Source of the DNA: Candidatus Pacearchaeota archaeon UBA73
Lineage (GTDB): Archaea > Nanobdellota > Nanobdellia > Pacearchaeales > GW2011-AR1
Length of the DNA: 64,000 bases
Assembly (NCBI GenBank): GCA_002496015.1
Contig: DAIF01000014.1
Span: forward strand, 891 to 64,890
Direction of reading: 5' to 3'
In this document: one piece after another, positions 8,515-30,093 of the stretch
How the letters are laid out: every line of letters begins with the position of its first letter
Numbering within the stretch: position 1 is the stretch's first letter
Made by a program: the position numbers and the translations under genes
The notes under the pieces: model-generated
What the model was told of the DNA's origin: nothing
The model's input: only the letters and a program-made list of their open reading frames with translations
Database searches by the model: none

Positions 8515-8648
8515 AGCTCTGTCCGAAGTTTTGATTTTTTCTAAAATTTGGATGGTGGGGGTGGAGTGGCTGCGAGTCGGGTTTTTCCTCGTAGAGGAAA
8601 TGTTAGTGGGGATTTGAAAAATCAAAACATACTAACTACGGACAGAGC
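8515..8648. mobile_element. MITE-like repeat, family A copy 1 (about 134 bp), with terminal inverted repeats AGCTCTGTCCG.../...CGGACAGAGC
   Basis: It is about 90% identical to 14698-14883 apart from an internal indel. The ends are inverted repeats, each containing TTTTGATTTTT / AAAAATCAAAA. Confidence 0.7.
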
Positions 8649-13235: not shown

Positions 13236-13724
13236 CTACCCTGGCGCTGGCGTACCCCCCGGTGGTGCATATTGAGTGCAATCAATTGTCACTGGAGGAC
13301 AAACCGCTCGTTCACCAGCATCACCCGTCACAATACCTGCAACACTAACTCTTCGAGGTGTCCCTGTCCCTGTCACCGTCCCTTCAAAGGTAACTGTTCC
13401 CAATGATGGACCAGCCGACTCTTCCATACTAGCAACACTAGCACCTGCCTCATTAACAACATCTGCAACTATAGACTGTGCTTCCCCACGCATATTTCTA
13501 ACTCGTACAGTCACGCTATCTGGAGACCCTACAGTCCAGATACAAGAAACTGGCTGAACATCAACACTAAAGCACTTCGTCCTCAAGTTAGTCTCCGAAG
13601 CAGCAGTATCAAAAGTAGGTCTCAAGAAACCCCAAACAATAGCAACAGCAGCAAGCGCTAAAAGCACTATAAGCACCGTAGCGACAATGTTACTCAATCC
13701 TCTTTTGTTTTTTCTTGTTATCAT
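13236..13724 (-). CDS. Class III signal peptide (archaeal type IV pilin-like) protein, paralog 2
   Basis: The N-terminus KNKRGLSNIVATVLIVLLALAAVAIVWGF is a basic stretch plus G plus a hydrophobic helix, as in prepilin-peptidase substrates. An SD-like GAGGT lies 6 nt upstream. It starts 10 nt after paralog 1. Confidence 0.7.
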   Translation of the reverse strand: MITRKNKRGLSNIVATVLIVLLALAAVAIVWGFLRPTFDTAASETNLRTKCFSVDVQPVSCIWTVGSPDSVTVRVRNMRGEAQSIVADVVNEAGASVASMEESAGPSLGTVTFEGTVTGTGTPRRVSVAGIVTGDAGERAVCPPVTIDCTQYAPPGGTPAPG

Positions 13725-13734
13725 TTTTTACCTC

Positions 13735-14193
13735 TTAATTGCAAGCCACCGCCACAGACTCTGGGCAAGTCTCTGTATTACCACTACCATCTCTAACCCT
13801 TGCAGCTACTCTTGCTATAAAGGGCGAAGCCGTCCCTATATCATTAACCTGAGTAGCCTGAGACCCTAGAGCTGTCGTTGGAGCAATTCCTTGAGAAACA
13901 TAAGTAATCCCATTATCATCTTCCACTACAGCAGCCACAGAATCCAAGGTAACCTCTGTAGGTACACTCGTCTTTAACTGATAAGCAACATTAGCAGTTG
14001 CTCCAGAAAGACTACACTGTGTTGGCTCAACAGTAACCAAGAAACATGCATTCCTCAATGAAGTTTGGGAAGCGGCATTATCAAAAGTAGGTCTCAAGAA
14101 ACCCCAAACAATAGCAACAGCAGCAAGCGCCAAAAGCACTATAAGCACCGTAGCGACGATGTCACTCAATCCTCTTTTGTTCATCATGTCCAT
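13735..14193 (-). CDS. Class III signal peptide (archaeal type IV pilin-like) protein, paralog 1
   Basis: Its N-terminus NKRGLSDIVATVLIVLLALAAVAIVWGF is nearly identical to paralog 2 at nucleotide level over about 110 nt. The C-terminal domain is unrelated. A TTTATAA element lies about 20 nt upstream of the start. Confidence 0.7.
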   Translation of the reverse strand: MDMMNKRGLSDIVATVLIVLLALAAVAIVWGFLRPTFDNAASQTSLRNACFLVTVEPTQCSLSGATANVAYQLKTSVPTEVTLDSVAAVVEDDNGITYVSQGIAPTTALGSQATQVNDIGTASPFIARVAARVRDGSGNTETCPESVAVACN

Positions 14194-14410: not shown

Positions 14411-15023
14411 CTAAAGCTCCCGCTCTAAATTAATTATCTCCGTCGTACTCCAAGTCCTGATCGCTCCTTGTTTCTTGAAATGTTCATCATCTGACCAAAT
14501 ACCATCGTTGGGAACAGAAAGAGCCAGCGCAACAAAAGGGACATCTTTCTCATCTACTTCCCCAATTATCTCTTCAGCTTCTTCCATTTTATGAGCATAC
14601 TTCTCTCTGTGAACAACTTCAATACTCTCTATCAATAAACCAAACAATGTCTCAAACTCCTCCTACGTCAATCCGGCTCTTTCAATTATTATTTTTCAGC
14701 TCTGTCCAGAGTTTTGATTTTTTCTAAAATTTGGATGGTGGGGCGGGTTAGCAAGGGCGAGCACGTTACGCGAGTGCAAAAGTTGATTAATTTCGAGCGT
14801 GGCTGCGAGCAGGGTTTTTCCTCGTAGAGGAAATGTTAGTGGGGATTTGAAAAATCAAAACATACTAACTCCGAAACAGAGCTGTTTTTTCATATTTTCT
14901 AATTTCAGAGATAAGTGTTTCAGGAGCATAAAGAATAAATGGCGAGTCAATAAGAAAATTTCGGGTCAGACCTTCCTTAAACATCCCTGAAAAGACAACA
15001 TTAGTATCAATGATAAAAATCAT
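14411..15023 (-). pseudogene. PIN-domain (VapC-like) toxin gene disrupted by a MITE insertion
   Basis: The N-terminal fragment (minus strand from 15023) reads MIFIIDTNVVFSGMFKEGLTRNFLIDSPFILYAPETLISEIRKYEKT and runs into the repeat, where it meets a stop. The C-terminal fragment (14647-14411) EEFETLFGLLIE...VPFVALALSVPNDGIWSDDEHF continues the alignment with the intact paralog at 15626-16033. Confidence 0.7.
14698..14883. mobile_element. MITE-like repeat, family A copy 2 (about 186 bp), inserted inside the PIN gene
   Basis: Its termini AGCTCTGTCC...GAAACAGAGCT are inverted repeats. The internal sequence matches 8515-8648 and 12800-12915, and the interrupted host ORF is visible on both flanks. 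Confidence 0.75.
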
Positions 15024-15035
15024 TTTCTATGATTC

Positions 15036-15254
15036 TCAGCAATCCCCCCCTCTAACAAGCTTATCTAATTCTTCAACATCTTTCTTTGTCAGCTTGGATT
15101 TATTAGCTATAGCATTCGCTATTCTTATCTTTCTGAGATGCTCAAGCAATGCCTTTCTGACGACCCCGCTCCAGTTAACCTCTCCGTGCCTCTTCATCTC
15201 TTCCTTCAAATCTTTCGGCACACTCAAAGTGATATTTTCCATATGTGTATACAC
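15036..15254 (-). CDS. Ribbon-helix-helix/CopG-like antitoxin (VapB-like) upstream of the disrupted PIN gene
   Basis: ENITLSVPKDLKEEMKRH is a typical RHH beta-strand and helix. It ends 12 nt before the PIN start. Confidence 0.55.
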   Translation of the reverse strand: MYTHMENITLSVPKDLKEEMKRHGEVNWSGVVRKALLEHLRKIRIANAIANKSKLTKKDVEELDKLVRGGDC

Positions 15255-15434
15255 ATAATCACACCATTTAATTTTTTCCTTCTCCCGTTAAATATCATAA
15301 ACGACAAACATAATTATCTCAAACCGCAGTTAATTCTATGAATAAAAAGTCCATCAAAACTAACAAAGAACTGCAAGAAAAGGCAGATATTCTCAAATAA
15401 GAAACCTTAAATATCTCAAACGATAACCAATCCT

Positions 15435-15629
15435 ATGAGTGAAATCAAAATAGAAATCCCTGAAGAACTGAAAAGAAAAATAGAAACCAAAATAGGCCTG
15501 ACTCTCTTAGTTAAAAGACTAGTCAAGCACCTCGAAGAAGAACAAGAAATGATAGACTGGTCCGTAAAACTCCAGAGAACTGCAAGAAAAGGCAGATACA
15601 GAAAGCTTAAAGAAAAAGGATTGATATGA
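15435..15629 (+). CDS. Antitoxin-like small protein (VapB-like)
   Basis: A 64-aa ORF (SEIKIEIPEELKRKIE) that overlaps the downstream PIN gene by 4 nt (ATGA). Confidence 0.5.
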   Translation: MSEIKIEIPEELKRKIETKIGLTLLVKRLVKHLEEEQEMIDWSVKLQRTARKGRYRKLKEKGLI

Positions 15630-16033
15630 AAATAGTGGCAGATTCAAACATTTTATTTACTTTCTTTTGGAAAGACTCATTTACAAAGGGCATTCTCGTC
15701 GACCAAAATTTTGAATTTTTCGCTCCAGAAATAGCAATTCACGAAATAAAAAATAACAAACAAGAAATAACCAAAAAAACAAAATCTTCCGAAGAAGAAT
15801 TCAATTCGTTACTTGGAGAGTTAGCTATCTTTGTAGAGTTTATTCCCCTCGACGAATACATTGATAAGGTTAGTGAAGCAGACGTGATATCTGACAAAGA
15901 TGATATCGATTTCATCGCTCTCGCCCTCAAATTAAACTGTGAAATATGGTCAAACGATCCTCATCTAAAAGAACAAAACAAGGTAAAGGTTTATACCACT
16001 TCAGAATTTATCCAACACATCGAACAATCTTAA
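15626..16033 (+). CDS. PIN-domain ribonuclease (VapC-like toxin)
   Basis: It has the MKIVADSNIL acidic start, a conserved D in DIDFIALAL, and an ATGA overlap with the upstream small gene. Confidence 0.7.
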   Translation: MKIVADSNILFTFFWKDSFTKGILVDQNFEFFAPEIAIHEIKNNKQEITKKTKSSEEEFNSLLGELAIFVEFIPLDEYIDKVSEADVISDKDDIDFIALALKLNCEIWSNDPHLKEQNKVKVYTTSEFIQHIEQS

Positions 16034-16037
16034 AAAA

Positions 16038-16343
16038 TCATTTATGCAAAAACCAAAACGAAAACAACTTTTCATTTTTATCGTCGAATTTTGCAAAACC
16101 AAATCTCTCGAACTGCACAACCGAATTTTCAGAAATTTGTTTCAGAGCCGGCTCACCCAACCCCGAAATCCATCTCCCATCCTCCATCAAAATCCGGACT
16201 TTCAAATTTTTATCTTCGGCAGGAAGCCAATGAATCATTTTCGCACCAAGTCTTGCATCAACTTCCTTAGAAAAAAACTTTTCGTTGTGATTTCCCATAT
16301 CGGCATTCTTGATATTTAATAAACATATATAAGAAACCTTCAA
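16038..16343 (-). other. Stand-alone paralog or gene fragment of the GluRS C-terminal (anticodon-binding) domain
   Basis: NLKVRILMEDGRWISGLGEPALKQISENSVVQFERFGFAKF...FWFLHK aligns with the C-terminus of the gltX product in this window (YVDVRIFMPNGNFINGFGDIGLKSLSVGELIQFERFGFCRL...FWFTHK). Confidence 0.5.
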
Positions 16344-16417
16344 TAGACAAGTTAAACAGAATACTTATCAAATACGTCCCATTTAGACAGAAGGTCATCA
16401 TAAATTATAAATCTAAA

Positions 16418-17422
16418 CTACTGTTTATCTAAGAACTTGTCTATTTCCTCACTTAAGACCCCTACAGAATAAGATTTACGTTTATTGTCTTTAAGGATCT
16501 CCTGATCCATATCAGACATATCGTATATAGCAACACTCAAGCTATCCCCTATACCTTCTTCTATATTTTTCGGCACGCCTAGATCTAAAATTAAAACATT
16601 TCTTCTCATAGAAGATAAGTCTTCTCGTTTAATCGTTTTCTCATTTGAAGCAATACAAGTCAATATAATGTCTGCTTCTGAGATGATATGTTTAATATCA
16701 ACAAGATCAACCGCTACAATATCGAACATTTCGGCAAGCTGTTCTACTTTCGTCCTACTTCTTCCTGCAACAAAAATCTTTAAGGGAAATAGGCGAGAAA
16801 TCCTTTTGATCAGTTTTCTAGCCAGCATACCTGTGCCTATGATAAGAAAAGATGCATCATGAATAATATTAATCTTGTTCTTCGAGATTATTTCAATAGC
16901 CACATCTGCATAAGAAAAGAAACTTCCTCTCAGAGGATACTTTCTCTTTAAAGACGCGCTTTTCGTTATTACAACATCAAAGAATAAATCTAACTCTTTA
17001 TCTGTAAAGTTTCTTTCCTTGCAAGATTTGTAAGCAGATTTAACTTGCATAAAAATATCTCTCTCGCCCAATATAAAAGAGTCTAAACCGCAACAAAGTC
17101 GAATCAAATGCTTAGTTAAAGACTTCCCCGTAAATACTTCTACATTCAACTCCGTGACTTCATTAGGAATGGTTTCTTGGATTATCTCTCTGAGTAGTTC
17201 AGCGGAAAAAGAAATGCTTGGAAGATGAGAAACATAAAGTTCAAACCTATGACACGTAGCTATCAAAATAAAATTACTTCCTTTATATGCTTTTAATTTA
17301 GATAGAATTATTTCATAAAATAATTCCTCATTATCCCTAAACCACCCGTAGAGGTTATCTAATAAAAGCTTCGAAGTAATTCTATGATTAATGGACAAAC
17401 CAGTCAGCCTTCTACAACTCAT
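16418..17422 (-). CDS. hemA: Glutamyl-tRNA reductase-like protein (HemA family)
   Basis: The catalytic-Cys motif ATCHRFELY (canonical TCNRxEIY), ILGERDIFMQVK (canonical ILGExQI..QVK) and a Rossmann IIGTGMLARKL are present. The region is strongly AT-rich. Confidence 0.55.
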   Translation of the reverse strand: MSCRRLTGLSINHRITSKLLLDNLYGWFRDNEELFYEIILSKLKAYKGSNFILIATCHRFELYVSHLPSISFSAELLREIIQETIPNEVTELNVEVFTGKSLTKHLIRLCCGLDSFILGERDIFMQVKSAYKSCKERNFTDKELDLFFDVVITKSASLKRKYPLRGSFFSYADVAIEIISKNKINIIHDASFLIIGTGMLARKLIKRISRLFPLKIFVAGRSRTKVEQLAEMFDIVAVDLVDIKHIISEADIILTCIASNEKTIKREDLSSMRRNVLILDLGVPKNIEEGIGDSLSVAIYDMSDMDQEILKDNKRKSYSVGVLSEEIDKFLDKQ

Positions 17423-18159
17423 ATTATGGTAGTTTGATCAGACTTAGCAGGAACAAACTCTAAGGAAAATTTAGAATCCCATAAAAACCTCTTCTTGATA
17501 AACCTCAACATAACGAGTGTGGCTGCCGTTACTTCTTCAACAAGAGCAGTATTAACTAATATTTCCTCAAGATAGTGCTCAGTAATATCCGGTTTTATCT
17601 TGAGTTTTTTTACTTCACGTATCCAATATTGAACTGAAGGAGTAGTTTTACCATTTATGAAAAATAAGGCTTTCAATATGAAGGGCAATGCATAATAAAC
17701 CAGCCACTTTTTTGTAATATTATCATCTTGCTCGACAGAAGATATCTTCTTTTCTATCATGTCTACTCTATAAGAGAGCTTAGATTTAGTAAGATCACTT
17801 ATCTTAAACGACTTAAACCTTTTCTGTACTCTCCTCAAGAGGGTTTTACAATATTCGGAATCTTGTTCGTACACTATCTTCCCAGTTGCTAGAGCCCTTA
17901 TTAGAATTGGATCGTCATTACGCAAGCAATTCTCAAATCTTTCTTGAGAATAATAAAAACATTCCACTCTCTCCGATTTTTCCGTAGTCCAGATTTTAAC
18001 CTTGTCTGTTCCAAAAGTAATGATAAAAAAGTCATAGTCTGCATAATTCTCTTTGATAGTCTCTTCTGTTCCCGACCTACTTCCAGAGAAAAATATAGCT
18101 CTTGTATCGGATGTTTTTATTAAGTCCAGAATCCCTTCTATAAATTTAGAGTATTTCAT
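17419..18159 (-). CDS. Hypothetical protein, possible nucleotidyltransferase fold
   Basis: FFSGSRSGTEETIKENYADYDFFII resembles a GS...D.D nucleotidyltransferase motif. It overlaps hemA by 4 nt. Confidence 0.3.
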   Translation of the reverse strand: MKYSKFIEGILDLIKTSDTRAIFFSGSRSGTEETIKENYADYDFFIITFGTDKVKIWTTEKSERVECFYYSQERFENCLRNDDPILIRALATGKIVYEQDSEYCKTLLRRVQKRFKSFKISDLTKSKLSYRVDMIEKKISSVEQDDNITKKWLVYYALPFILKALFFINGKTTPSVQYWIREVKKLKIKPDITEHYLEEILVNTALVEEVTAATLVMLRFIKKRFLWDSKFSLEFVPAKSDQTTII

Positions 18160-18223
18160 AATAATATTTATTATATCATTATGTATAAAAAATTAACTTT
18201 CCTCAAGGCAGCAAGAAAATGTA

Positions 18224-19558
18224 ATGAAAAATTTATCTCAACTCGCTATTTTCAAGAATAAAGAAAATAATATATACTCTCTTAGAACTTTAATCAATAT
18301 GCAAATAAGGGATTATATAATAAAAGATTCGGCTATTACAAAAAGATTCAACAGAGATTTTTTGAATAACGAGATAAATAAAGAATATATCAAGAGAATA
18401 GATATTTATGATGGATTTTTACCAAAAATGCTATCAGAGAGATTATTCAAATACGGCGGCTATATCAAATTAAGTAAAATACAGAATAAGGAAGAAGTAT
18501 TTTACTCAGAAAAGAAGAGAACTCTTGCTGTTGCCTGTTATGCTGGAAGAGCTCGCAAAAATCACCTTATCTGGTTGATAAAGAGATTTATGAGAATAAA
18601 TGGAATGCGCTACAAAATTTCTGTCTTGAATAATGGAGGCAAATCGCAAGAACAGATAGCTAAAGAATGGATTAGCAGGCTTCCGAGACCAATACCTACA
18701 AAAATAATATTTGGATCACTACAAGGCATAAGCACATTACTTCATAGTTACGACCTACCGTCCGAAATAATAACTAACAAGAATGATTTTTCTTACTTTA
18801 TCAATTATTATAATGCCCGATTCATAGAATATTCTTCAGAGCAACACATTAAAAGTTTATTTGGAAAATTCGATAGAAAGTCTGCCTTTGATTTAGTCGA
18901 ATCCCTTCGCAAAGACCCGTTGTTTTTAGTAGATTCTAAGATACTTTGGGCAATAAGAAAAAGAAAAGATATATTTGAAAGAGGATTCCCCAAGAGTCTA
19001 AATTATATACGAGATGAATATTTAGATTATGCTTATCTTAAGATTAAAGGAAAACGCTTTTTAGTTACTGGTTATCCCTACGGGGATCAAATGGATACTG
19101 TATTGAAAATGCTAAGGAAAAAGTCTAGAATTACAGCAGTTTATTTTATAGGAAGCTGTGGTTCTCTAAAGAAAAATATCAAATTAAACGACTTAATAGT
19201 GCCAAATGCAATCTCTTACAAAGGGAGAACATTGAGCTTTAAGAATGACCTAAAAGAACTGATCGGCAGAAAATTTTGTTATGGACCATTAAAACTGTTT
19301 TGTTTTGACGGAAAATCTAAGGTAGTTGACAGCCCATTAACAGAAATGGTTACGCAATTAGAGTCTTTTGCTAAAGAAGGGTTTGTAAGCGTTGATGTGG
19401 AAGCATATCACTTGATAAGTGCAAGTAAAGGCATACCTAAGATAGGCGTGATATATTACATCTCAGACATGCCATTACATGGAAGTAATCTAACAAACTC
19501 GCCACCGAGCTATGTTGGATGGAAAACAGCAGCTACAAATTTAATCAAGATAATATAG
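18224..19558 (+). CDS. Hypothetical protein with a C-terminal PNP/UDP-type nucleoside phosphorylase-like domain
   Basis: The C-terminal 170 aa (VTGYPYGDQMD...FIGSCGSL...VSVDVEAYHL) resembles the phosphorylase-1 superfamily. The N-terminal 270 aa is unassigned. Confidence 0.35.
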   Translation: MKNLSQLAIFKNKENNIYSLRTLINMQIRDYIIKDSAITKRFNRDFLNNEINKEYIKRIDIYDGFLPKMLSERLFKYGGYIKLSKIQNKEEVFYSEKKRTLAVACYAGRARKNHLIWLIKRFMRINGMRYKISVLNNGGKSQEQIAKEWISRLPRPIPTKIIFGSLQGISTLLHSYDLPSEIITNKNDFSYFINYYNARFIEYSSEQHIKSLFGKFDRKSAFDLVESLRKDPLFLVDSKILWAIRKRKDIFERGFPKSLNYIRDEYLDYAYLKIKGKRFLVTGYPYGDQMDTVLKMLRKKSRITAVYFIGSCGSLKKNIKLNDLIVPNAISYKGRTLSFKNDLKELIGRKFCYGPLKLFCFDGKSKVVDSPLTEMVTQLESFAKEGFVSVDVEAYHLISASKGIPKIGVIYYISDMPLHGSNLTNSPPSYVGWKTAATNLIKII

Positions 19559-19613
19559 CCAAGGCAAACGCATGCAGTAAACAGAACCTAGAAACCTTTA
19601 GACAATCCCCCCC

Positions 19614-21272
19614 TTATTTATGAGTAAACCAAAATTCATAAACAACTTTTTTATTTTCTTTCTCTTTTTTATCAAGTCTACAAAAACCAAATCTCTCAAA
19701 TTGAATTAATTCTCCAACAGAAAGACTTTTCAGACCAATATCCCCAAACCCATTAATAAAATTTCCATTTGGCATAAATATTCGTACATCTACATAATCG
19801 GAAACCCATTGAATTCTCGGAACATCTTTGTTATCCACTGTAGTAAAAGTTGCATTTGGCAATCGATTTAATTGGATGTTAAAAAGATGCAAGAGCCTTA
19901 TTTCCTTGCCAGAGAATTCTTCAAAATCCTCACGGGATATATAAATCTGACCAACTTTAAGTTTTCTGGTATCATCAAAGTCCGGATGAACTTTAAGTTC
20001 AACTTCAGATACATTAGGACGATTATTAACTATTAATCCTATGGGATTCTGAACAAAAAAGTACCTCTTTGCCCGCGCATCGATTATTTTTCGGTTAATA
20101 GACGCGATCATATCGAAATCAAGATTTACTTGATGTCTAGACAGTCCAACTTGCTCAACAAGTCCGTAAATTGCTTCTTTCGTTATTCCCCTCCTCCTTA
20201 ACGCTCTCAGAGTGATAAGCCTCGGATCATCCCATCCGACTAGCTCACCAGATTCGACTAGCTCCCGAATTTCTCTGCCCTGAGTAGTAAAATCAATGAC
20301 ATTAAATCGACCATACTGAATAATCTTTTGCTTTCGAAGTCCAAGCAAATCTTTAATTTTATCCTGAAGTTCAATTCTCAGATCAAATTCATTACTTCGT
20401 AAAATAAGAGTCACACCCATCAAACTATCCTCGATAGGATTATAAAAATCATACATGGGCCAAACTTTATATTTATCCCCTTGTCTGTAATGCTTAACAG
20501 GTATTGCGCGAAACAAAACCGAATCCCTCATAACATGATTCTTGCTTTTCATATTTCCTTTTATCCTCAAAACCGCTTCACCCTTAGTATATTTTCCATC
20601 AACAAACTTTTTCCATTCATCTAAATTATTCTTCCTCGAATTTCTTCTACAGTCACAAGCTTGTCCCTTGTGTCGTAAATCCTGCATTTTATTCCTATCA
20701 CAAAAGCACATATACGCACGATTCATCCCGATAAGCTTCCTTGCATAATCATATAAAATTTCCATATCATCAGAGATAAACTTTACTCCGTCAACTTTTA
20801 TACCTAAATAATTTAAAACATCTTCTTTCATTGCATCAACATACTCCTGCGAAACCTTTTCAGGATTTGTGTCTTCGAATCTCAAAAAACACTTCCCATT
20901 ATATTTTCGAGCATATTGATAATTCAAGAGAAATGAAATAGCATGTCCTATATGGGCGTACTTAGAAGGCTCCGGTGCAATTCTGGTCACCACTTCATTT
21001 AACCCAGAAATATCGATGTCGGGCAGCATCTTATCCACAACTTCTCTTTCTTTGACAAATCCCTTAAACTTTTCAAATTCCTTTTCTCTTGCAGAAACAG
21101 ACATCTTATTTACTTCATCAACAATCTTCTGCAGCGAAGGCATTATCTTACCAATGTCTTTCTTATCCAACCCGTGATTAAACAACTTAGGCAAAACCTT
21201 ACCGACAACCGCTCTTCCATATTCAATCGCGTTCTTCAAAGCGTACGCCCACATTTCATTTTCCAGTTTCAT
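19614..21272 (-). CDS. gltX: Glutamyl-tRNA synthetase (archaeal GluRS/GlxRS type)
   Basis: Class I HIGH motif (PSKYAHIGHAISFLLN), an MKSKN (KMSKS-like) loop, and a C-terminal beta-barrel anticodon-binding domain. Confidence 0.85.
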   Translation of the reverse strand: MKLENEMWAYALKNAIEYGRAVVGKVLPKLFNHGLDKKDIGKIMPSLQKIVDEVNKMSVSAREKEFEKFKGFVKEREVVDKMLPDIDISGLNEVVTRIAPEPSKYAHIGHAISFLLNYQYARKYNGKCFLRFEDTNPEKVSQEYVDAMKEDVLNYLGIKVDGVKFISDDMEILYDYARKLIGMNRAYMCFCDRNKMQDLRHKGQACDCRRNSRKNNLDEWKKFVDGKYTKGEAVLRIKGNMKSKNHVMRDSVLFRAIPVKHYRQGDKYKVWPMYDFYNPIEDSLMGVTLILRSNEFDLRIELQDKIKDLLGLRKQKIIQYGRFNVIDFTTQGREIRELVESGELVGWDDPRLITLRALRRRGITKEAIYGLVEQVGLSRHQVNLDFDMIASINRKIIDARAKRYFFVQNPIGLIVNNRPNVSEVELKVHPDFDDTRKLKVGQIYISREDFEEFSGKEIRLLHLFNIQLNRLPNATFTTVDNKDVPRIQWVSDYVDVRIFMPNGNFINGFGDIGLKSLSVGELIQFERFGFCRLDKKEKENKKVVYEFWFTHK

Positions 21273-21346
21273 AAAATCACCAAGAAAAGGAGTTATTTAA
21301 TCCTTACCACAGCAATCTTTATATAGAAACGCAGAGAAAATAAACA

Positions 21347-25721: not shown

Positions 25722-26171
25722 ATGGAAAAAGAGGAAACCAGATTTTTTCAAGATATTAACAAGTTCAATGAAATATACAAACTTCCAATCAACGAAAAAC
25801 CAACTCTTCTCGGAATCGAACGACTTGAAAATTTCAAAAATGTCTTTCAGGAAGAAGTAAACGAAATAGATGAAATCATAGCGCAATACAAAGAAAAAGA
25901 AAATTCCCTATCTGAAGAAGACAAAATCCAGCTCCTTACCGAATTATCAGACTGGCTCGGCGACATGGTAGTTTACATCGCATCCGAATGCAAAAAGCAC
26001 GGAATAGACCTCAACAAAACTCTCGAAATAATCATGCAGTCCAATTTCAGCAAACTCGATACAAACGGCAACCCAATCTACGACGAACGGGGCAAAGTTA
26101 TGAAAGGTCCAAATTACTGGAAACCCGAACCAAAAATATCCGAACACATTAAAGAAAAGCTATCTATTTAA
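25722..26171 (+). CDS. MazG-like all-alpha nucleoside triphosphate pyrophosphohydrolase
   Basis: The EEVNEIDE...EEDKIQLLTELSDWLGDMVVYIASECKKHGIDL pattern shows the metal-binding E..E...E/D arrangement of the MazG/HisE fold. Confidence 0.45.
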   Translation: MEKEETRFFQDINKFNEIYKLPINEKPTLLGIERLENFKNVFQEEVNEIDEIIAQYKEKENSLSEEDKIQLLTELSDWLGDMVVYIASECKKHGIDLNKTLEIIMQSNFSKLDTNGNPIYDERGKVMKGPNYWKPEPKISEHIKEKLSI

Positions 26172-27954
26172 CAGCCCGCTTAGCTTTCTCTCTTCTAATA
26201 AAACCATTAACCTGTTCAGGCAACCTATTCAATGGATAATGCTCTCCATCGTATGGAATCAATCCCCTAAAAGAAGGCATTACTCCCAAAACTTGCTCGA
26301 TTTCTTGTCTGGCAATTTCTCTGTAAGAATCAGCTCCAGCAGGCTGCGTTCTCAAACCAGCTTCATAAAAACACTGCGTCGGATCTTTCGTCACAACATG
26401 CCTTATCGTATTTGCCATAACAGGAACATATTCCGCAGCCTCGTGATAACCCGCAAGTTTCAAATCGTCTGACAATGCTCTTACTCTTTCCATCAAACTC
26501 CTGAACATATCACCCAACTCCATCTCCCCAATTTCCGACCTCATGTGAAAACCGGTTACAGTATACGGTCCTAGCTGTTGTCTATCTCCCCTCTGCCTCT
26601 GCAAATCTCTCATCGCCCCAATATCATAATTCCTCTCGAAAGTAAATGTCCCCACTTCCGCAACTTTCGAAAACAAGTCATGACTTCTCATCCCGGCAAC
26701 ATACCCCTCCGCAATTTTTCTGCGTTCAGAAAAATCAAGCCCCCTGACACGTTTCCTCAAATTCTCAAAAGAAACACTGCCGTCAGAACCATGGAACAAA
26801 ATACTCGCTAAAATTAAATCCTCAATGTCTGGAGTATGCGCAATCAGTTTAGACTCTAACGACATCTCTCCATAAGGAACAGATGGATTGTGAGGTTCCC
26901 CGATAAATTTTTCAAACAAAACTCTCTGCCTTTCAGATTCGGAAGCAACAAACTCGCTCGGCCCGCCATACTTCATCAGCGTCGGAGAAATCTTCATCGC
27001 TTCAATCTGCGCAGCCTTCCCCAAAACTCTCAGTTCAGCTAATTCAGATGACTGCCACTCAGTCAGCATATCCTGAAATCTCCTTGTGTTCAAAGTTATC
27101 CCAAGAGAAGTCGTCATATTCTGCGGTAGCAAAGACCTCGCCAAATCAAACGCTTTCTCGGCTATCGCTTTCTCCCAAGCCCCGCCAGGCAATCTTGCAT
27201 AAGGGTCTTCTAATTCCCTTTGTATTTGCCTGTCTGCCTCATCACGCAAATGCGCATACTTCAAAGCAAGAAATCTCTTGCCTTTTTCAAAAACCTCGTC
27301 GTAAAGTGCAAATAATTCTCTATCAAGCGCAAGCATCTTTTCTTCATACCCCGTTCCCCGAATCTCAAAGGGCACTCCAACGCTATTAACCGAAGCCACC
27401 GTTGCCCTAGTTGAAATTTCTTGATAAGCTCCTTCCCGCGCTTTCTCTAAGGGTTTTGTAGCTCTCTGACTAACTCCTTCCATACAAATTCTAATGACTC
27501 CGGAATCCCTCAAAGAAGCGTGTCCATAATCAACGCCATACTCTTTTATCCATTTTCCGGCTCTAGCAAGATGTGCCTCGAGCGCTCCCCGAATGTCTCC
27601 TTGTCGCCGAATCATTTCAGCAAATTCTTCTAAATCCAAAACCCTGCCGCTTTCGTCTTTTTCCTTAACATCCCTAAAAAGCTGCAGCAATCTATCCCGT
27701 GCAGTTACATTGCTCCGCGCATACTGCCCCATCAACAACGCCCACAATTCTCCAGGCATGTTATCAGTCGCGCAATAAACATTCGACTCCGTATTGGTAA
27801 AGAAATACCCTAAAACAGTTCTCTCGTCGTCACTATAATCCCTTCTTCCCCGAAACTTCCCAATCCCGCTAAATCCGGGTCTCACACTGTCGCCGTCAAA
27901 AAACCGCGCAAACAATTTATTATCACCATCTCTTAACAAAACCATTCCGAACAA
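26164..27954 (-). CDS. Tandem-domain ThyX-like (flavin-dependent thymidylate synthase family) protein with altered motifs
   Basis: AFDLARSLLPQNMTTSLGITLNTRRFQDMLTEW matches the ThyX C-terminal AR..LP...T...T.N.R consensus. EKAREGAYQEISTRA aligns with RHRIASYNELSGRY, with RHR replaced by KAR. A second weaker copy (LQRQRGDRQQ; ANTIRHVVTKD) lies in the C-terminal half. The protein is 596 aa and GC-rich. Confidence 0.4.
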   Translation of the reverse strand: MFGMVLLRDGDNKLFARFFDGDSVRPGFSGIGKFRGRRDYSDDERTVLGYFFTNTESNVYCATDNMPGELWALLMGQYARSNVTARDRLLQLFRDVKEKDESGRVLDLEEFAEMIRRQGDIRGALEAHLARAGKWIKEYGVDYGHASLRDSGVIRICMEGVSQRATKPLEKAREGAYQEISTRATVASVNSVGVPFEIRGTGYEEKMLALDRELFALYDEVFEKGKRFLALKYAHLRDEADRQIQRELEDPYARLPGGAWEKAIAEKAFDLARSLLPQNMTTSLGITLNTRRFQDMLTEWQSSELAELRVLGKAAQIEAMKISPTLMKYGGPSEFVASESERQRVLFEKFIGEPHNPSVPYGEMSLESKLIAHTPDIEDLILASILFHGSDGSVSFENLRKRVRGLDFSERRKIAEGYVAGMRSHDLFSKVAEVGTFTFERNYDIGAMRDLQRQRGDRQQLGPYTVTGFHMRSEIGEMELGDMFRSLMERVRALSDDLKLAGYHEAAEYVPVMANTIRHVVTKDPTQCFYEAGLRTQPAGADSYREIARQEIEQVLGVMPSFRGLIPYDGEHYPLNRLPEQVNGFIRREKAKRAVK

Positions 27955-29319: not shown

Positions 29320-30093
29320 ATGGAACACCAGTATCTAAAAAACATCAAACCCGGAATAAAAGTAGAAATACTCACAAGCCAACATCGAATCTCGACTGGG
29401 ATCGTGGAGGAAATAGCGGCAAGGAACCATTTCCACAAGGACGGCATAATGGTCCGCCTCAAAAACGGCGACGTGGGACGCGTCCAAAAAATCCTGCTGA
29501 CAGAACAACAGCAAAACGACATCGCCGCGCACGAACTAAAAGAAATAATCAAAAAAGGAGAAAACTTCAGCACCGAGTTCAAGTCAGAAGCACTCTGGAG
29601 TATAACTCTCAATCCCCAACAACTAAAAGAAACAAAATCATTTGAAATCCGAGAGTATGGCACACGTGCCTCAAAAATCATCATCGCAAAATCAATCGCC
29701 GCATTCATGAACTCTGAAGGAGGCAGCCTCGTAATCGGAGTCAAGGAAAAAAAAGAAAAAGAAATATTTGAGCTTCACGGTCTGGAAGAAGACTTCAAAA
29801 AACTTCGAATAAACACAAAAGATGAATATCGCAGAATTGTCATCGACGAAATAATCCGCACTTTCTTCCCGCCCAAAATATTCAACCATCTAAACAATCA
29901 CCTTGAAATGAAATTCGTCGAAATAGAAAACAAAACACTCTTTTGGATAAAGATAAAACCCTCCGATTCAAGGGTATTCCTTAACATAAACAACAAAGAT
30001 ATCTTTATGATTCGCGTTGATTCAGAAAACAGAACTCTCGAAGGGGAAAAACTAGTCGACTACTGCATAAAAAAATGGGGCAATCGCAATTAG
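29320..30093 (+). CDS. DUF2196/YwbE-like N-domain fused to a Schlafen/AlbA_2-type domain protein
   Basis: The N-terminal part is KVEILTSQHRISTGIVEEI...GIMVRLKNGDVGRVQKI. The middle part ENFSTEFKSEALW...ASKIIIAKSIAAFMNSEGGSLVIGVKE matches the AlbA_2 pattern. Confidence 0.45.
   Translation: MEHQYLKNIKPGIKVEILTSQHRISTGIVEEIAARNHFHKDGIMVRLKNGDVGRVQKILLTEQQQNDIAAHELKEIIKKGENFSTEFKSEALWSITLNPQQLKETKSFEIREYGTRASKIIIAKSIAAFMNSEGGSLVIGVKEKKEKEIFELHGLEEDFKKLRINTKDEYRRIVIDEIIRTFFPPKIFNHLNNHLEMKFVEIENKTLFWIKIKPSDSRVFLNINNKDIFMIRVDSENRTLEGEKLVDYCIKKWGNRN

Follow-up and report, generated by a model that had tools for sequence, protein, structure and literature searches.

A conserved nucleotidyltransferase and glutamyl-tRNA reductase-like gene pair beside glutamyl-tRNA synthetase genes, and the remnant of a second gltX, in an AT-rich block of a Pacearchaeota genome

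Introduction

The stretch of DNA analysed here, called the window throughout, spans 64,000 nucleotides of a contig of Candidatus Pacearchaeota archaeon UBA73 (DAIF01000014.1, positions 891 to 64,890; assembly GCA_002496015.1). It carries a gene for a glutamyl-tRNA reductase (GluTR)-like protein whose start is overlapped by the end of a nucleotidyltransferase (NTase) gene. On one side of this pair lie a 444-aa open reading frame (ORF) and gltX, the full-length glutamyl-tRNA synthetase (GluRS) gene of the window; on the other comes a small ORF, here called the C2 ORF, that encodes only the distal anticodon-binding barrel of a GluRS, followed by two PIN-domain cassettes and an archaeal pilin-like gene (Table 1). 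The conserved unit of the locus is the NTase together with the GluTR-like protein, whose genes habitually stand beside GluRS-family genes.

GluTR is the textbook example of aminoacyl-tRNA use outside translation and, to our knowledge, is known only as the entry to tetrapyrrole synthesis. In its reaction a Cys attacks the aminoacyl ester, the tRNA is released and the thioester is reduced by NADPH (PMC7242693, PMC6399207). The roles of its domains have been described (PMC7242693, PMC6399207, PMC4726326), among them that of the dimerisation domain, which is carried on a long spinal helix and gives rise to the V-shaped dimer that docks HemL (PMC6399207, PMC4726326). DPANN genomes are generally devoid of canonical biosynthetic pathways (PMC6349945).

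The GluTR-Like Reductase

The original prediction had recognised GluTR motifs in this gene, and all of them (ATCHRFELY with the catalytic Cys, GLDSFILGE..I..QVK and the Rossmann segment GTGMLA) are indeed present and are now backed by domain and fold matches. In Pfam, the protein matches GlutR_N (PF05201, E 6.9e-22) and the Shikimate_DH NADP domain (PF01488, E 2.3e-23). Its best family matches are hemA equivalogs, yet the score against TIGR01035 is 150.3 bits, compared with a cut-off of 209.55, and the remaining hemA equivalog models also stay far under their cut-offs. At the sequence level, the protein matches the GluTR structures of M. kandleri and Arabidopsis, with PDB entry 1GPJ at E 4.5e-18, and an AlphaFold2 (AF2) model with a predicted local distance difference test score (pLDDT) of 88.7 retrieves 1GPJ (E 5e-22) and 5YJL (template modelling (TM) score 0.70) as the top Foldseek folds.

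The roles of individual residues were assigned from reviews and from alignment to 1GPJ. In an alignment of 25 GluTRs, T56, C57, R59, E61, G119, E120, Q126, G196 and G198 of the reductase occupy invariant columns, and the residues of two nearly invariant columns, H105 and S115, are likewise present; the nearly invariant N58 is replaced by His. The NADPH site (G196-x-G198-x-x-A) is in place, together with the Arg that follows strand 2. On the other hand, no match to the PF00745 dimerisation domain is found in the reductase, whose chain stops about 30 residues past the NADPH domain and retains only a stub of the spinal helix.

The reductase is an isolated sequence: besides itself, no relative above 31% identity was retrieved by a word-index search of 5.8 billion proteins, nor when 1.84 billion representatives were searched exhaustively with HMMER. 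Among 172 GluTR representatives it falls into a clade of its own with four short proteins that are among its best matches (P0033, P0034, P0037 and P0086; neighbour-joining bootstrap 187/200). The members of this subfamily share TCHR for TCNR, GE-x-D/E-I for GE-x-Q-I, the strings SYASIP and GxGMLG, the loss of the Arg from PR[DN], a small N-terminal insertion and the same C-terminal truncation, and every one of them has the NADPH site. TCHR was dropped as a sole marker of the subfamily, as several full-length GluTRs have His at that position.

An Overlapping NTase Gene as the Conserved Partner

The stop codon of the NTase gene and the start codon of the reductase gene share 4 bp (ATGA). At the sequence level, no Pfam, NCBIfam or PDB match is obtained for the NTase, and only four clusters of its family are found among 5.8 billion proteins. 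Its catalytic elements can nevertheless be read from the family alignment, in which the G-S pair (G26-S27), the D-x-D motif (D41-x-D43) and a third carboxylate (E66) are invariant; C-terminal residues including an Arg and a Lys (YR..MI..K) are conserved as well. The AF2 model (pLDDT 70.6) has ANT(4') (6un8 and 1kny) as its top Foldseek match, with TM scores of 0.62-0.65 over about 250 residues, and further fold matches include ANT(4')-IIb, LinB and Hailong HalB, all of these structural matches lying at 10-15% sequence identity. The homologue in L056, one of the related loci compared here, has precomputed Polbeta/NTP_transf_2 matches. Membership in a defence system or a phage family was considered and set aside, with no match in PADLOC or PHROG and no NTase relative in IMG/VR.

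In two other AT-rich lineages (L056-58 and L061-64), the gene directly upstream of the GluTR-like gene codes for an NTase that is 32-36% identical to that of the window (E 1e-38 to 1e-41). In the first, ATGA overlaps join a GluRS ORF of archaeal type that contains only the catalytic domain (402 aa), the NTase gene (242 aa) and the GluTR-like gene, and these are followed by a gene for a bacterial-type GluRS and a pilin-like gene. In the second, a bacterial-type GluRS gene (496 aa) comes first, followed by the NTase (249 aa), the GluTR-like gene and NUDIX. Since these homologues lie directly upstream of GluTR-like genes elsewhere, in L056-58 with the same ATGA overlap, the window NTase is regarded as the conserved partner of the reductase. 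This partner had been missed by the original prediction, which had joined the GluTR-like gene to the C2 ORF instead; a free-standing C2 ORF accompanies the module nowhere else, and in sister genomes the C2 piece stands next to a pilin gene without the module having been found.

A GluRS connection is also seen where the arrangement differs. In L059/60 the GluTR-like gene is directly preceded by a GluRS C-terminus, and in the window gltX lies upstream of the module and a GluRS piece downstream, so that GluRS-family genes flank the reductase in four of the five subfamily lineages, the window counted. The earlier suspicion that the gene is no ordinary isolated hemA is supported, and so is its link to GluRS-family genes. 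No haem genes occur among the 37 ORFs Pfam-scanned across the 64-kb window, nor in L056 (8 kb) or L062 (4.4 kb), about 76 kb of module contexts altogether. No paper was found in the literature that links GluTR to DPANN archaea, to an NTase or to GluRS operons, and the module appears to be undescribed so far.

The two GluRS genes of L056 have peculiarities of their own. The bacterial-type enzyme (L056:3719-5131) shows QLGN at the HIGH position and retains KLSKS, and the other gene is without any anticodon-binding domain; neither looks complete and canonical.

The C2 ORF and the Second gltX

The C2 ORF had been described at the outset as a paralogue of the C-terminal anticodon-binding domain of the window gltX. 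Its domain content agrees with this: PF20974 is the sole match (E 1e-8) and is covered over the full profile (1-69/69), NF003169 is matched only at positions 473-567 of its 567, and the identity to the C-terminus of the window gltX is 41% (24/59, E 3e-13). PF00749, the class I catalytic domain, and PF03950 are absent from the ORF, whether read as 86 or 101 aa, and it therefore holds one barrel of two. The likely start is the ATG at 16298, which shortens the ORF, first given as 16038-16343, to 86 aa and agrees with the public gene call.

The lineage is a different matter. In an alignment of GluRS C-termini from 44 related genomes and from fragments, the C2 ORF bears the marks of a lineage termed B' (RFMHLFNFK..FIS..L.AKMIHWLP and a deletion of its own), and the window gltX belongs to 'type A', as in the closest GTDB relatives. 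The idea of a recent duplicate of the window gltX was accordingly dropped, the C2 ORF grouping with a different GluRS lineage, which shows an indel pattern of its own. The C2 ORF corresponds to residues 467-548 of the 548-aa full-length B' GluRS of L054, and it is 75-77% identical to a pilin-adjacent B' copy in sister species (L004/L005/L053), whose neighbouring proteins are about 86% identical. In L004 and L053 only 36 bp separate the C2 stop from the pilin start; in the window the pilin-like gene also comes after the C2 ORF, beyond the two inserted PIN cassettes. L052 carries a longer B' fragment that begins exactly at the boundary between the catalytic and anticodon-binding domains and has the pilin gene next to it; in both L052 and L053 the pilin start after the B' fragment reads MNKRGLS.... 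A metagenome scan for sequence upstream of the C2 piece in the sister species added L053-L055 only.

Three independent sister assemblies (L004:1-30, L005:1-65 and L053:1-15) end within about 45 bp of one another, just upstream of the B' C2 piece, and two of the three carry Nextera adaptor remnants, which hints at population heterogeneity or a drop in coverage at the island border. In two other B' gltX genes, which come from other metagenomes (L050:2-379 and L051:2-520), a single in-frame TAA lies 9 and 28 codons, respectively, upstream of the conserved Met of MHLFNF. GluRS homology runs on across the TAA in both, so that a pseudogene, a split gene or an error from low coverage could be involved.

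The original prediction had also raised the prospect that the small ORF is a degraded gltX remnant. This holds for its 5' side, which is truncated, and not for the domain itself, which is intact and under purifying selection. Upstream of the ATG, degenerate in-frame GluRS homology continues for about 15 codons until a stop at 16365-16367. Where six other B' sequences have YRFMHLFNFK (one with R-L for R-F), the window has YICLLNIK, and the present ATG is carried by a 7-codon insertion that follows. This flank retains 9 of 24 identical positions, with indels, compared with 77% identity in the core, and it contains a TATA-like TTATATAT at 16332-16325. No other B' remnant was found anywhere in the window by tblastn, and nothing of B' exists upstream of about 16340. 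In contrast to this decayed flank, every invariant C2 residue is present in the window ORF, and the ratio of nonsynonymous to synonymous substitution rates (dN/dS) of its 69-codon core relative to L004 is 0.16 (bootstrap 0.06-0.34), with values of 0.03-0.23 for neighbouring genes. Had the sequence decayed neutrally since the split, a ratio of about 0.5 or more would be expected, and therefore the C2 piece is either functional or recently truncated; we regard the chances that it is functional as evenly balanced. The reductase gene and the C2 ORF lie on the same strand, 119 nt apart. Because no run of five or more T residues is found between them and a T6 run appears only after the C2 stop, co-transcription of the C2 ORF with the module is possible.

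The catalytic-only GluRS of L056 is itself B'-like, with 41.5% identity to the enzyme of L054 and 34-36% to other types, and it stops where the L052 fragment begins. Complementary B' GluRS pieces thus stand around the module in two lineages, which may be the trace of an ancestral B'-associated module or a coincidence.

The gltX-Pilin Junction

In all the relatives examined by tblastn (L004, L005, L006, L007, L009 and L010), gltX or a piece of it lies directly upstream of the pilin gene. In the more distant ones (L006, L007, L009 and L010) this is a type A gltX, and in L056 it is a bacterial-type GluRS (GluRS470) that directly precedes the pilin-like gene. Three kinds of GluRS, type A, B' and bacterial-type, are therefore found at the pilin-adjacent position across related DPANN genomes, which identifies the gltX-pilin junction as an old synteny in which the type of synthetase has been exchanged. 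This suggests that an essential synthetase gene has been replaced in place repeatedly at the pilin locus.

The window gltX passes the cut-off of TIGR00463 (465 bits) and is 60-64% identical to gltX in metagenome-assembled genomes of Pacearchaeota and Nanoarchaeota (L006-L009). On their upstream side it adjoins the island genes, and it is AT-rich as well (GC 0.356). The DPANN GluRS of type A and of a further type B (window gltX; L006-L031) have TT[KQ]GREIR where the B' and canonical archaeal enzymes have the KMSKS-type loop KLSKS, and EPSKY-H-[IL]-GHA in place of PSGPLHIG.

These data are most simply explained if the gltX-pilin locus received an AT-rich segment by insertion or recombination and lost most of its resident B' gltX to it. 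As for the type A gene, arrival with the segment is one option, and its identity of 60-64% to relatives would fit vertical descent too.

The AT-Rich Block and Its Surroundings

The foreign-looking composition attributed earlier to the small ORF and its reductase neighbour is borne out by per-gene GC and GC3 values, although the AT-rich block is larger than had been proposed: it also takes in gltX, the 444-aa ORF, the NTase gene and the PIN cassettes, and the C2 ORF is its least AT-rich member (GC 0.383), near the window mean. The 444-aa ORF, the NTase and GluTR-like genes and gltX, with GC values of 0.32-0.36, are the lowest-GC genes of the window, in which genes average 0.416 (sd 0.042). No counterpart of the cargo (444-aa ORF, NTase, GluTR-like gene and PIN) exists in 44 GTDB gltX loci or in the sister contigs. 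The gene order is matched in a separately listed Logan assembly (L001, run SRR5037222), which may share reads with the contig of the window. An integrative element with a replacement gltX 3' end was considered and rejected: a search for att-like direct repeats returned only a 21-nt match at the codons for QFERFGF besides G-rich matches due to chance, and an integrase gene was not found.

The 444-aa ORF has the lowest GC of the tabulated genes (0.322). Apart from its resemblance to purine nucleoside phosphorylases (PNPs), it is matched weakly by NF005500 (AMP nucleosidase, E 1.8e-3) and by DeoD-type PNP (E 0.2); its first 270 residues or so have no match. No homologue is present at any fetched locus, and this cargo is specific to the genome. 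The ORF and the NTase gene diverge across a 64-bp intergenic region, which lies within the most AT-rich part of the block (GC 0.23 over 300 bp).

Relative to the sister genomes, both PIN cassettes, which resemble toxin-antitoxin (TA) pairs, are insertions that separate the C2 ORF from the pilin gene. The first consists of a PIN gene at 15626-16033(+) and a 64-aa partner at 15435-15629, and the second of a ribbon-helix-helix (RHH) gene at 15036-15254(-) and a disrupted PIN gene at 14411-15023(-). PIN135 was not found at any other locus examined. An insert of about 200 bp and higher GC breaks the disrupted gene into ORFs of 52 and 78 aa; it is edged by inverted copies of GTTTTGATTTTT(T)C and has the look of a miniature inverted-repeat transposable element. 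An exact further copy of the 14-mer is located at 8528-8541. The pilin-like gene has a paralogue in tandem (13236-13724 and 13735-14193, minus strand), with a 159-nt repeat of 85% identity between them (13551-13709 and 14023-14181).

The window is chromosomal DPANN DNA; elsewhere it carries genes for both PheRS subunits (alpha and beta), CysRS, aIF5B, CDC48, RtcB, Dus, ThyX, Tmk, IMPDH and adenylosuccinate synthetase. The ORF at 26164-27954 (minus strand) encodes 596 aa, of which the ThyX (Thy1) domain takes up only residues 132-324; such a length is unusual for ThyX, and the protein may be a fusion. Between a tRNA-Gly gene and small genes, the ORF at 29320-30093(+) combines DUF2196 with a Schlafen AlbA_2 domain.

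Table 1. Features of the gltX-pilin locus, with window coordinates
Feature	Position	Strand	Evidence
gltX, full-length GluRS, DPANN 'type A', 552 aa	19614..21272	-	PF00749, PF03950 and PF20974; type A motifs
444-aa ORF, weak PNP/AMP-nucleosidase-like C-terminal region	18224..19558	+	PF01048, E 1.5e-4 (below cut-off)
NTase, 246 aa, kanamycin-NTase (ANT(4')) fold	17419..18159	-	Fold and catalytic motifs
GluTR-like reductase, 334 aa	16418..17422	-	Pfam, NCBIfam, PDB match, AF2 model
C2 ORF, distal anticodon-binding beta-barrel of B'-type GluRS, 86 aa	16038..16298	-	PF20974 only
Degenerate in-frame GluRS homology 5' of the C2 ATG	16299..16364	-	Sequence reading and alignment
Two PIN-domain toxin-antitoxin-like cassettes	14411..16033	both	PF10130, E 1.6e-20; RHH_12
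Archaeal pilin-like gene, class III signal peptide, synteny anchor	13735..14193	-	tblastn synteny
AT-rich block, putative accessory island	14850..21300		GC ~0.31-0.37; lies between IMPDH (21347, +) and the region of the pilin gene

Comparison with Known Systems

Like HemA/GtrR (PF05201, PF01488 and PF00745; structures 1GPJ and 4N7R), the reductase has the fold of the catalytic and NADPH domains with the Rossmann glycine motif, and it keeps the nucleophilic Cys in T-C-x-R-x-E-x-Y as well as His, Ser and Glu in the glutamate pocket. Unlike HemA, it is without the dimerisation domain, stays under the equivalog cut-offs and belongs to its own clade, with His for Asn beside the Cys, GE-x-D for GE-x-Q and no Arg in PR[DN]; its gene is linked to NTase and GluRS genes and not to hemL/B/C/D. 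The NTase, in turn, shares with ANT(4')/KNTase (1KNY), ANT(4')-IIb and LinB a two-domain architecture over about 250 residues and the Pol-beta catalytic pattern. It differs from them in being only 10-15% identical, with no Pfam NTase or KNTase match, in its conserved C-terminal residues, among them an Arg and a Lys, and in its gene, which shows translational coupling with that of a GluTR-like protein instead of being a stand-alone resistance determinant.

The gene arrangement recalls type VII TA systems of the HEPN-MNT kind, in which an NTase gene also precedes and overlaps that of its partner and which likewise occur patchily and in islands with other TA genes (PMC11586414). The partner here is, however, a 334-aa homologue of an NADPH-dependent reductase and not a HEPN RNase, and the window module has neither the Rx4-6H motif nor a PADLOC match. 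A further likeness is to clusters for inhibitors of aminoacyl-tRNA synthetases (aaRSs), such as albomycin (SerRS), agrocin 84 (LeuRS) and the AspRS-targeting microcin C, where extra or divergent copies of the cognate synthetase stand beside the enzymes (PMC9032320). Two GluRS genes are present in L056, and gltX and a relic in the window; moreover, an adenylyltransferase-type enzyme could build a mimic of an aminoacyl-adenylate. No transporter, peptide precursor or other tailoring gene is seen by the module, in contrast to those clusters, and the resemblance is one of analogy and not of membership. We know of no described natural Glu-AMP mimic.

Finally, pieces of class Ic synthetases occur as separate ORFs both here (402 aa in L056, 86 aa in the window) and in the case of GluQRS/YadB and the split aaRSs of Nanoarchaeota. 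GluQRS is a bacterial paralogue of the catalytic domain; the piece in the window comes from the opposite end of the protein, comprises one of the two barrels and is evidently the leftover of a full-length B' gene such as that of L054. Unlike split aaRS genes, it has no matching N-terminal half in the window.

Proposed Role of the Module and Alternative Explanations

The NTase and the GluTR-like reductase constitute a rare, ancient two-gene module. The explanation favoured here, according to which this module has a role outside haem synthesis and lies, beside a gltX relic of other origin, in a strain-specific island, is given an even chance as a whole. Its parts differ in strength. A non-haem role is probable: loss of the HemL-docking dimerisation domain, the lack of haem genes nearby and the presence of an NTase as partner all argue against the C5 pathway. 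Because the residues of the GluTR pocket are retained, Glu-tRNA(Glu) from the adjacent GluRS is the most likely substrate, an assignment that we favour by a little. Finally, a nucleotidylated reduced-glutamate product is our preferred guess because the closest NTase folds adenylylate the hydroxyls of small molecules, but that the NTase acts on the reduced product at all is a tentative proposal, with the odds rather against it.

The following sequence of events can be envisaged. The neighbouring GluRS would make Glu-tRNA(Glu), which the module would use outside tetrapyrrole synthesis. Cys57 of the reductase would attack the aminoacyl ester, with release of the tRNA, and NADPH would reduce the thioester to an aldehyde and possibly on to an alcohol. 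The NTase might then nucleotidylate the reduced product, a glutamyl-adenylate-like compound being the most economical guess. As for the relic, a second gltX of the B' lineage stood directly upstream of the pilin gene, as it does to this day in sister genomes, and in the window about 85% of its length has been lost from the 5' side; the remaining C2 ORF, with an ATG of its own, is either domesticated or recently truncated, and possibly co-transcribed with the module.

Several observations weigh against this interpretation. One subfamily member, P0086, is encoded without any GluRS or NTase gene on its 2.3-kb contig (L065), and in L059 no NTase gene lies between the GluRS and GluTR-like genes; the contexts of the module stem from short contigs and a small number of lineages, with four NTase clusters and five reductase clusters. 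Some full-length GluTRs also carry His for Asn in TCNR, so that HemA function is not excluded by any single sequence feature, and short GluTRs without the dimerisation domain can be genuine HemA, as illustrated by P0005 in a hemA-hemC-hemD operon. With regard to the NTase, its model is of moderate confidence only (pLDDT 70.6), fold likeness does not reveal the substrate, and NTases that modify proteins or nucleic acids, such as Hailong HalB and those of the MntA type, are also among the fold matches. The low dN/dS of the C2 ORF, for its part, could reflect recent truncation instead of function.

Other explanations have to be weighed against the one preferred here, and two of them concern the activity of the reductase. 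An ordinary HemA, which feeds haem, sirohaem or cobamide synthesis with 5-aminolevulinate through the C5 route and evolves fast in AT-rich reduced genomes, with GluRS nearby for substrate supply, would account for the retention of all GluTR catalytic and glutamate-pocket residues and for hemA equivalogs being the best family matches, and two-domain HemA proteins of similar shortness are found in genuine haem operons. It is nonetheless quite improbable, given a score that reaches none of the hemA equivalog cut-offs (150 bits for TIGR01035, whose cut-off is 209.55), a distinct clade with its own signatures, a conserved partner that is an NTase and not hemL/B/C/D, the lack of haem genes in the module contexts analysed, about 76 kb in all, the missing domain that forms the HemL-docking V-shape (PMC6399207) and the general lack of cofactor biosynthesis in DPANN archaea (PMC6349945). 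Alternatively, the pair could be a toxin-like conflict module following the logic of type VII TA systems, in which the reductase drains Glu-tRNA(Glu) by reductive or hydrolytic deacylation and halts translation, the NTase neutralises or regulates it by nucleotidylating the reductase, as MntA does HepT, or acts on the tRNA 3' end, and the GluRS copies act as a buffer. Several features speak for this: the NTase gene comes first and overlaps its partner by 4 bp, an order shared with HEPN-MNT modules, whose NTase AMPylates the toxin (PMC11586414); the KNTase fold consists of an NTase and a helical domain, with MntA and HalB among the fold matches; GluTR is known to have esterase activity without NADPH (PMC4726326); and the module is extremely patchy in distribution, missing from sister genomes and placed in an AT-rich island beside two PIN cassettes. 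This explanation is considered unlikely, since PADLOC and PHROG give no matches, the best full-length folds are small-molecule adenylyltransferases (TM 0.62-0.65) and MntA reaches a TM score of only 0.29, and in the helical domain Arg131 is conserved but is not followed by a conserved His at a distance of 4-6 residues, so that there is no conserved Rx4-6H motif. In addition, the NADPH site, for which a simple deacylase would have no need, is kept in all subfamily members, and translational coupling to a gene for a GluRS catalytic domain, as in L056, would be unusual for a TA pair.

The C2 ORF is the pivot of the two remaining explanations. In one, close to the pairing put forward originally, the reductase and the free-standing C2 protein would form a dedicated tRNA(Glu)-handling pair, with C2 providing anticodon recognition in trans to a reductase that has lost its C-terminal domain. 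The short distance on the same strand with a T6 run only after the C2 ORF, the purifying selection on the C2 core and the complementary B' GluRS pieces beside the module in L056 (the catalytic half) and the window (C2) would all be in keeping with it. It is rather improbable, however: an ORF with only C2 or only the anticodon-binding domain accompanies no other instance of the module, the C2 piece is pilin-adjacent in L052 as well as in L004/L005/L053 and a collection of 15 billion proteins contains no close homologue of the module, the composition of the C2 ORF is unlike that of the module, and the distal barrel alone, without C1, makes up only a part of the anticodon-binding apparatus. In the other, the locus is decaying baggage, with the C2 ORF a pseudogene remnant that is still open by chance and the island genes recently gained and in the course of being lost. 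A 5'-truncated piece with decayed upstream homology and a stop, in a strain-specific island, is what would then be expected, and the other B' gltX genes with in-frame stops or truncation (L050, L051 and L052) suggest repeated loss of the paralogue. The dN/dS of 0.16, with an upper bootstrap bound of 0.34, rules out neutral evolution across the full divergence from L004, since neutrality would predict about 0.5 or more, no invariant C2 position has been lost, and the NTase and GluTR-like ORFs are intact, with catalytic motifs conserved across lineages that are only about 30% identical; this view is accordingly held to be unlikely as well.

An extension of the preferred explanation, and a long shot, is that GluRS, the NTase and the GluTR-like protein make up a minimal tRNA-dependent route from Glu-tRNA(Glu) to a reduced and adenylylated glutamate, a natural glutamol-AMP-like mimic of glutamyl-adenylate that would inhibit GluRS and that ultra-small episymbiotic archaea could use against hosts or competitors. 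If this were true, the succession at this single locus of type A, B', bacterial-type, catalytic-only and C2-relic GluRS genes would be the footprint of self-resistance and target replacement.

Implications

The existence of a GluTR subfamily that is tied to NTase and GluRS genes, in hosts in which tetrapyrroles are not expected, points to a second, undescribed use of Glu-tRNA, which would be either a metabolite-forming pathway or a form of translation control. The locus also offers a view of an essential synthetase gene being turned over in place in DPANN archaea. At the same time, a lone anticodon-binding barrel that survives under selection would bear on how aaRS domains turn into free-standing proteins.

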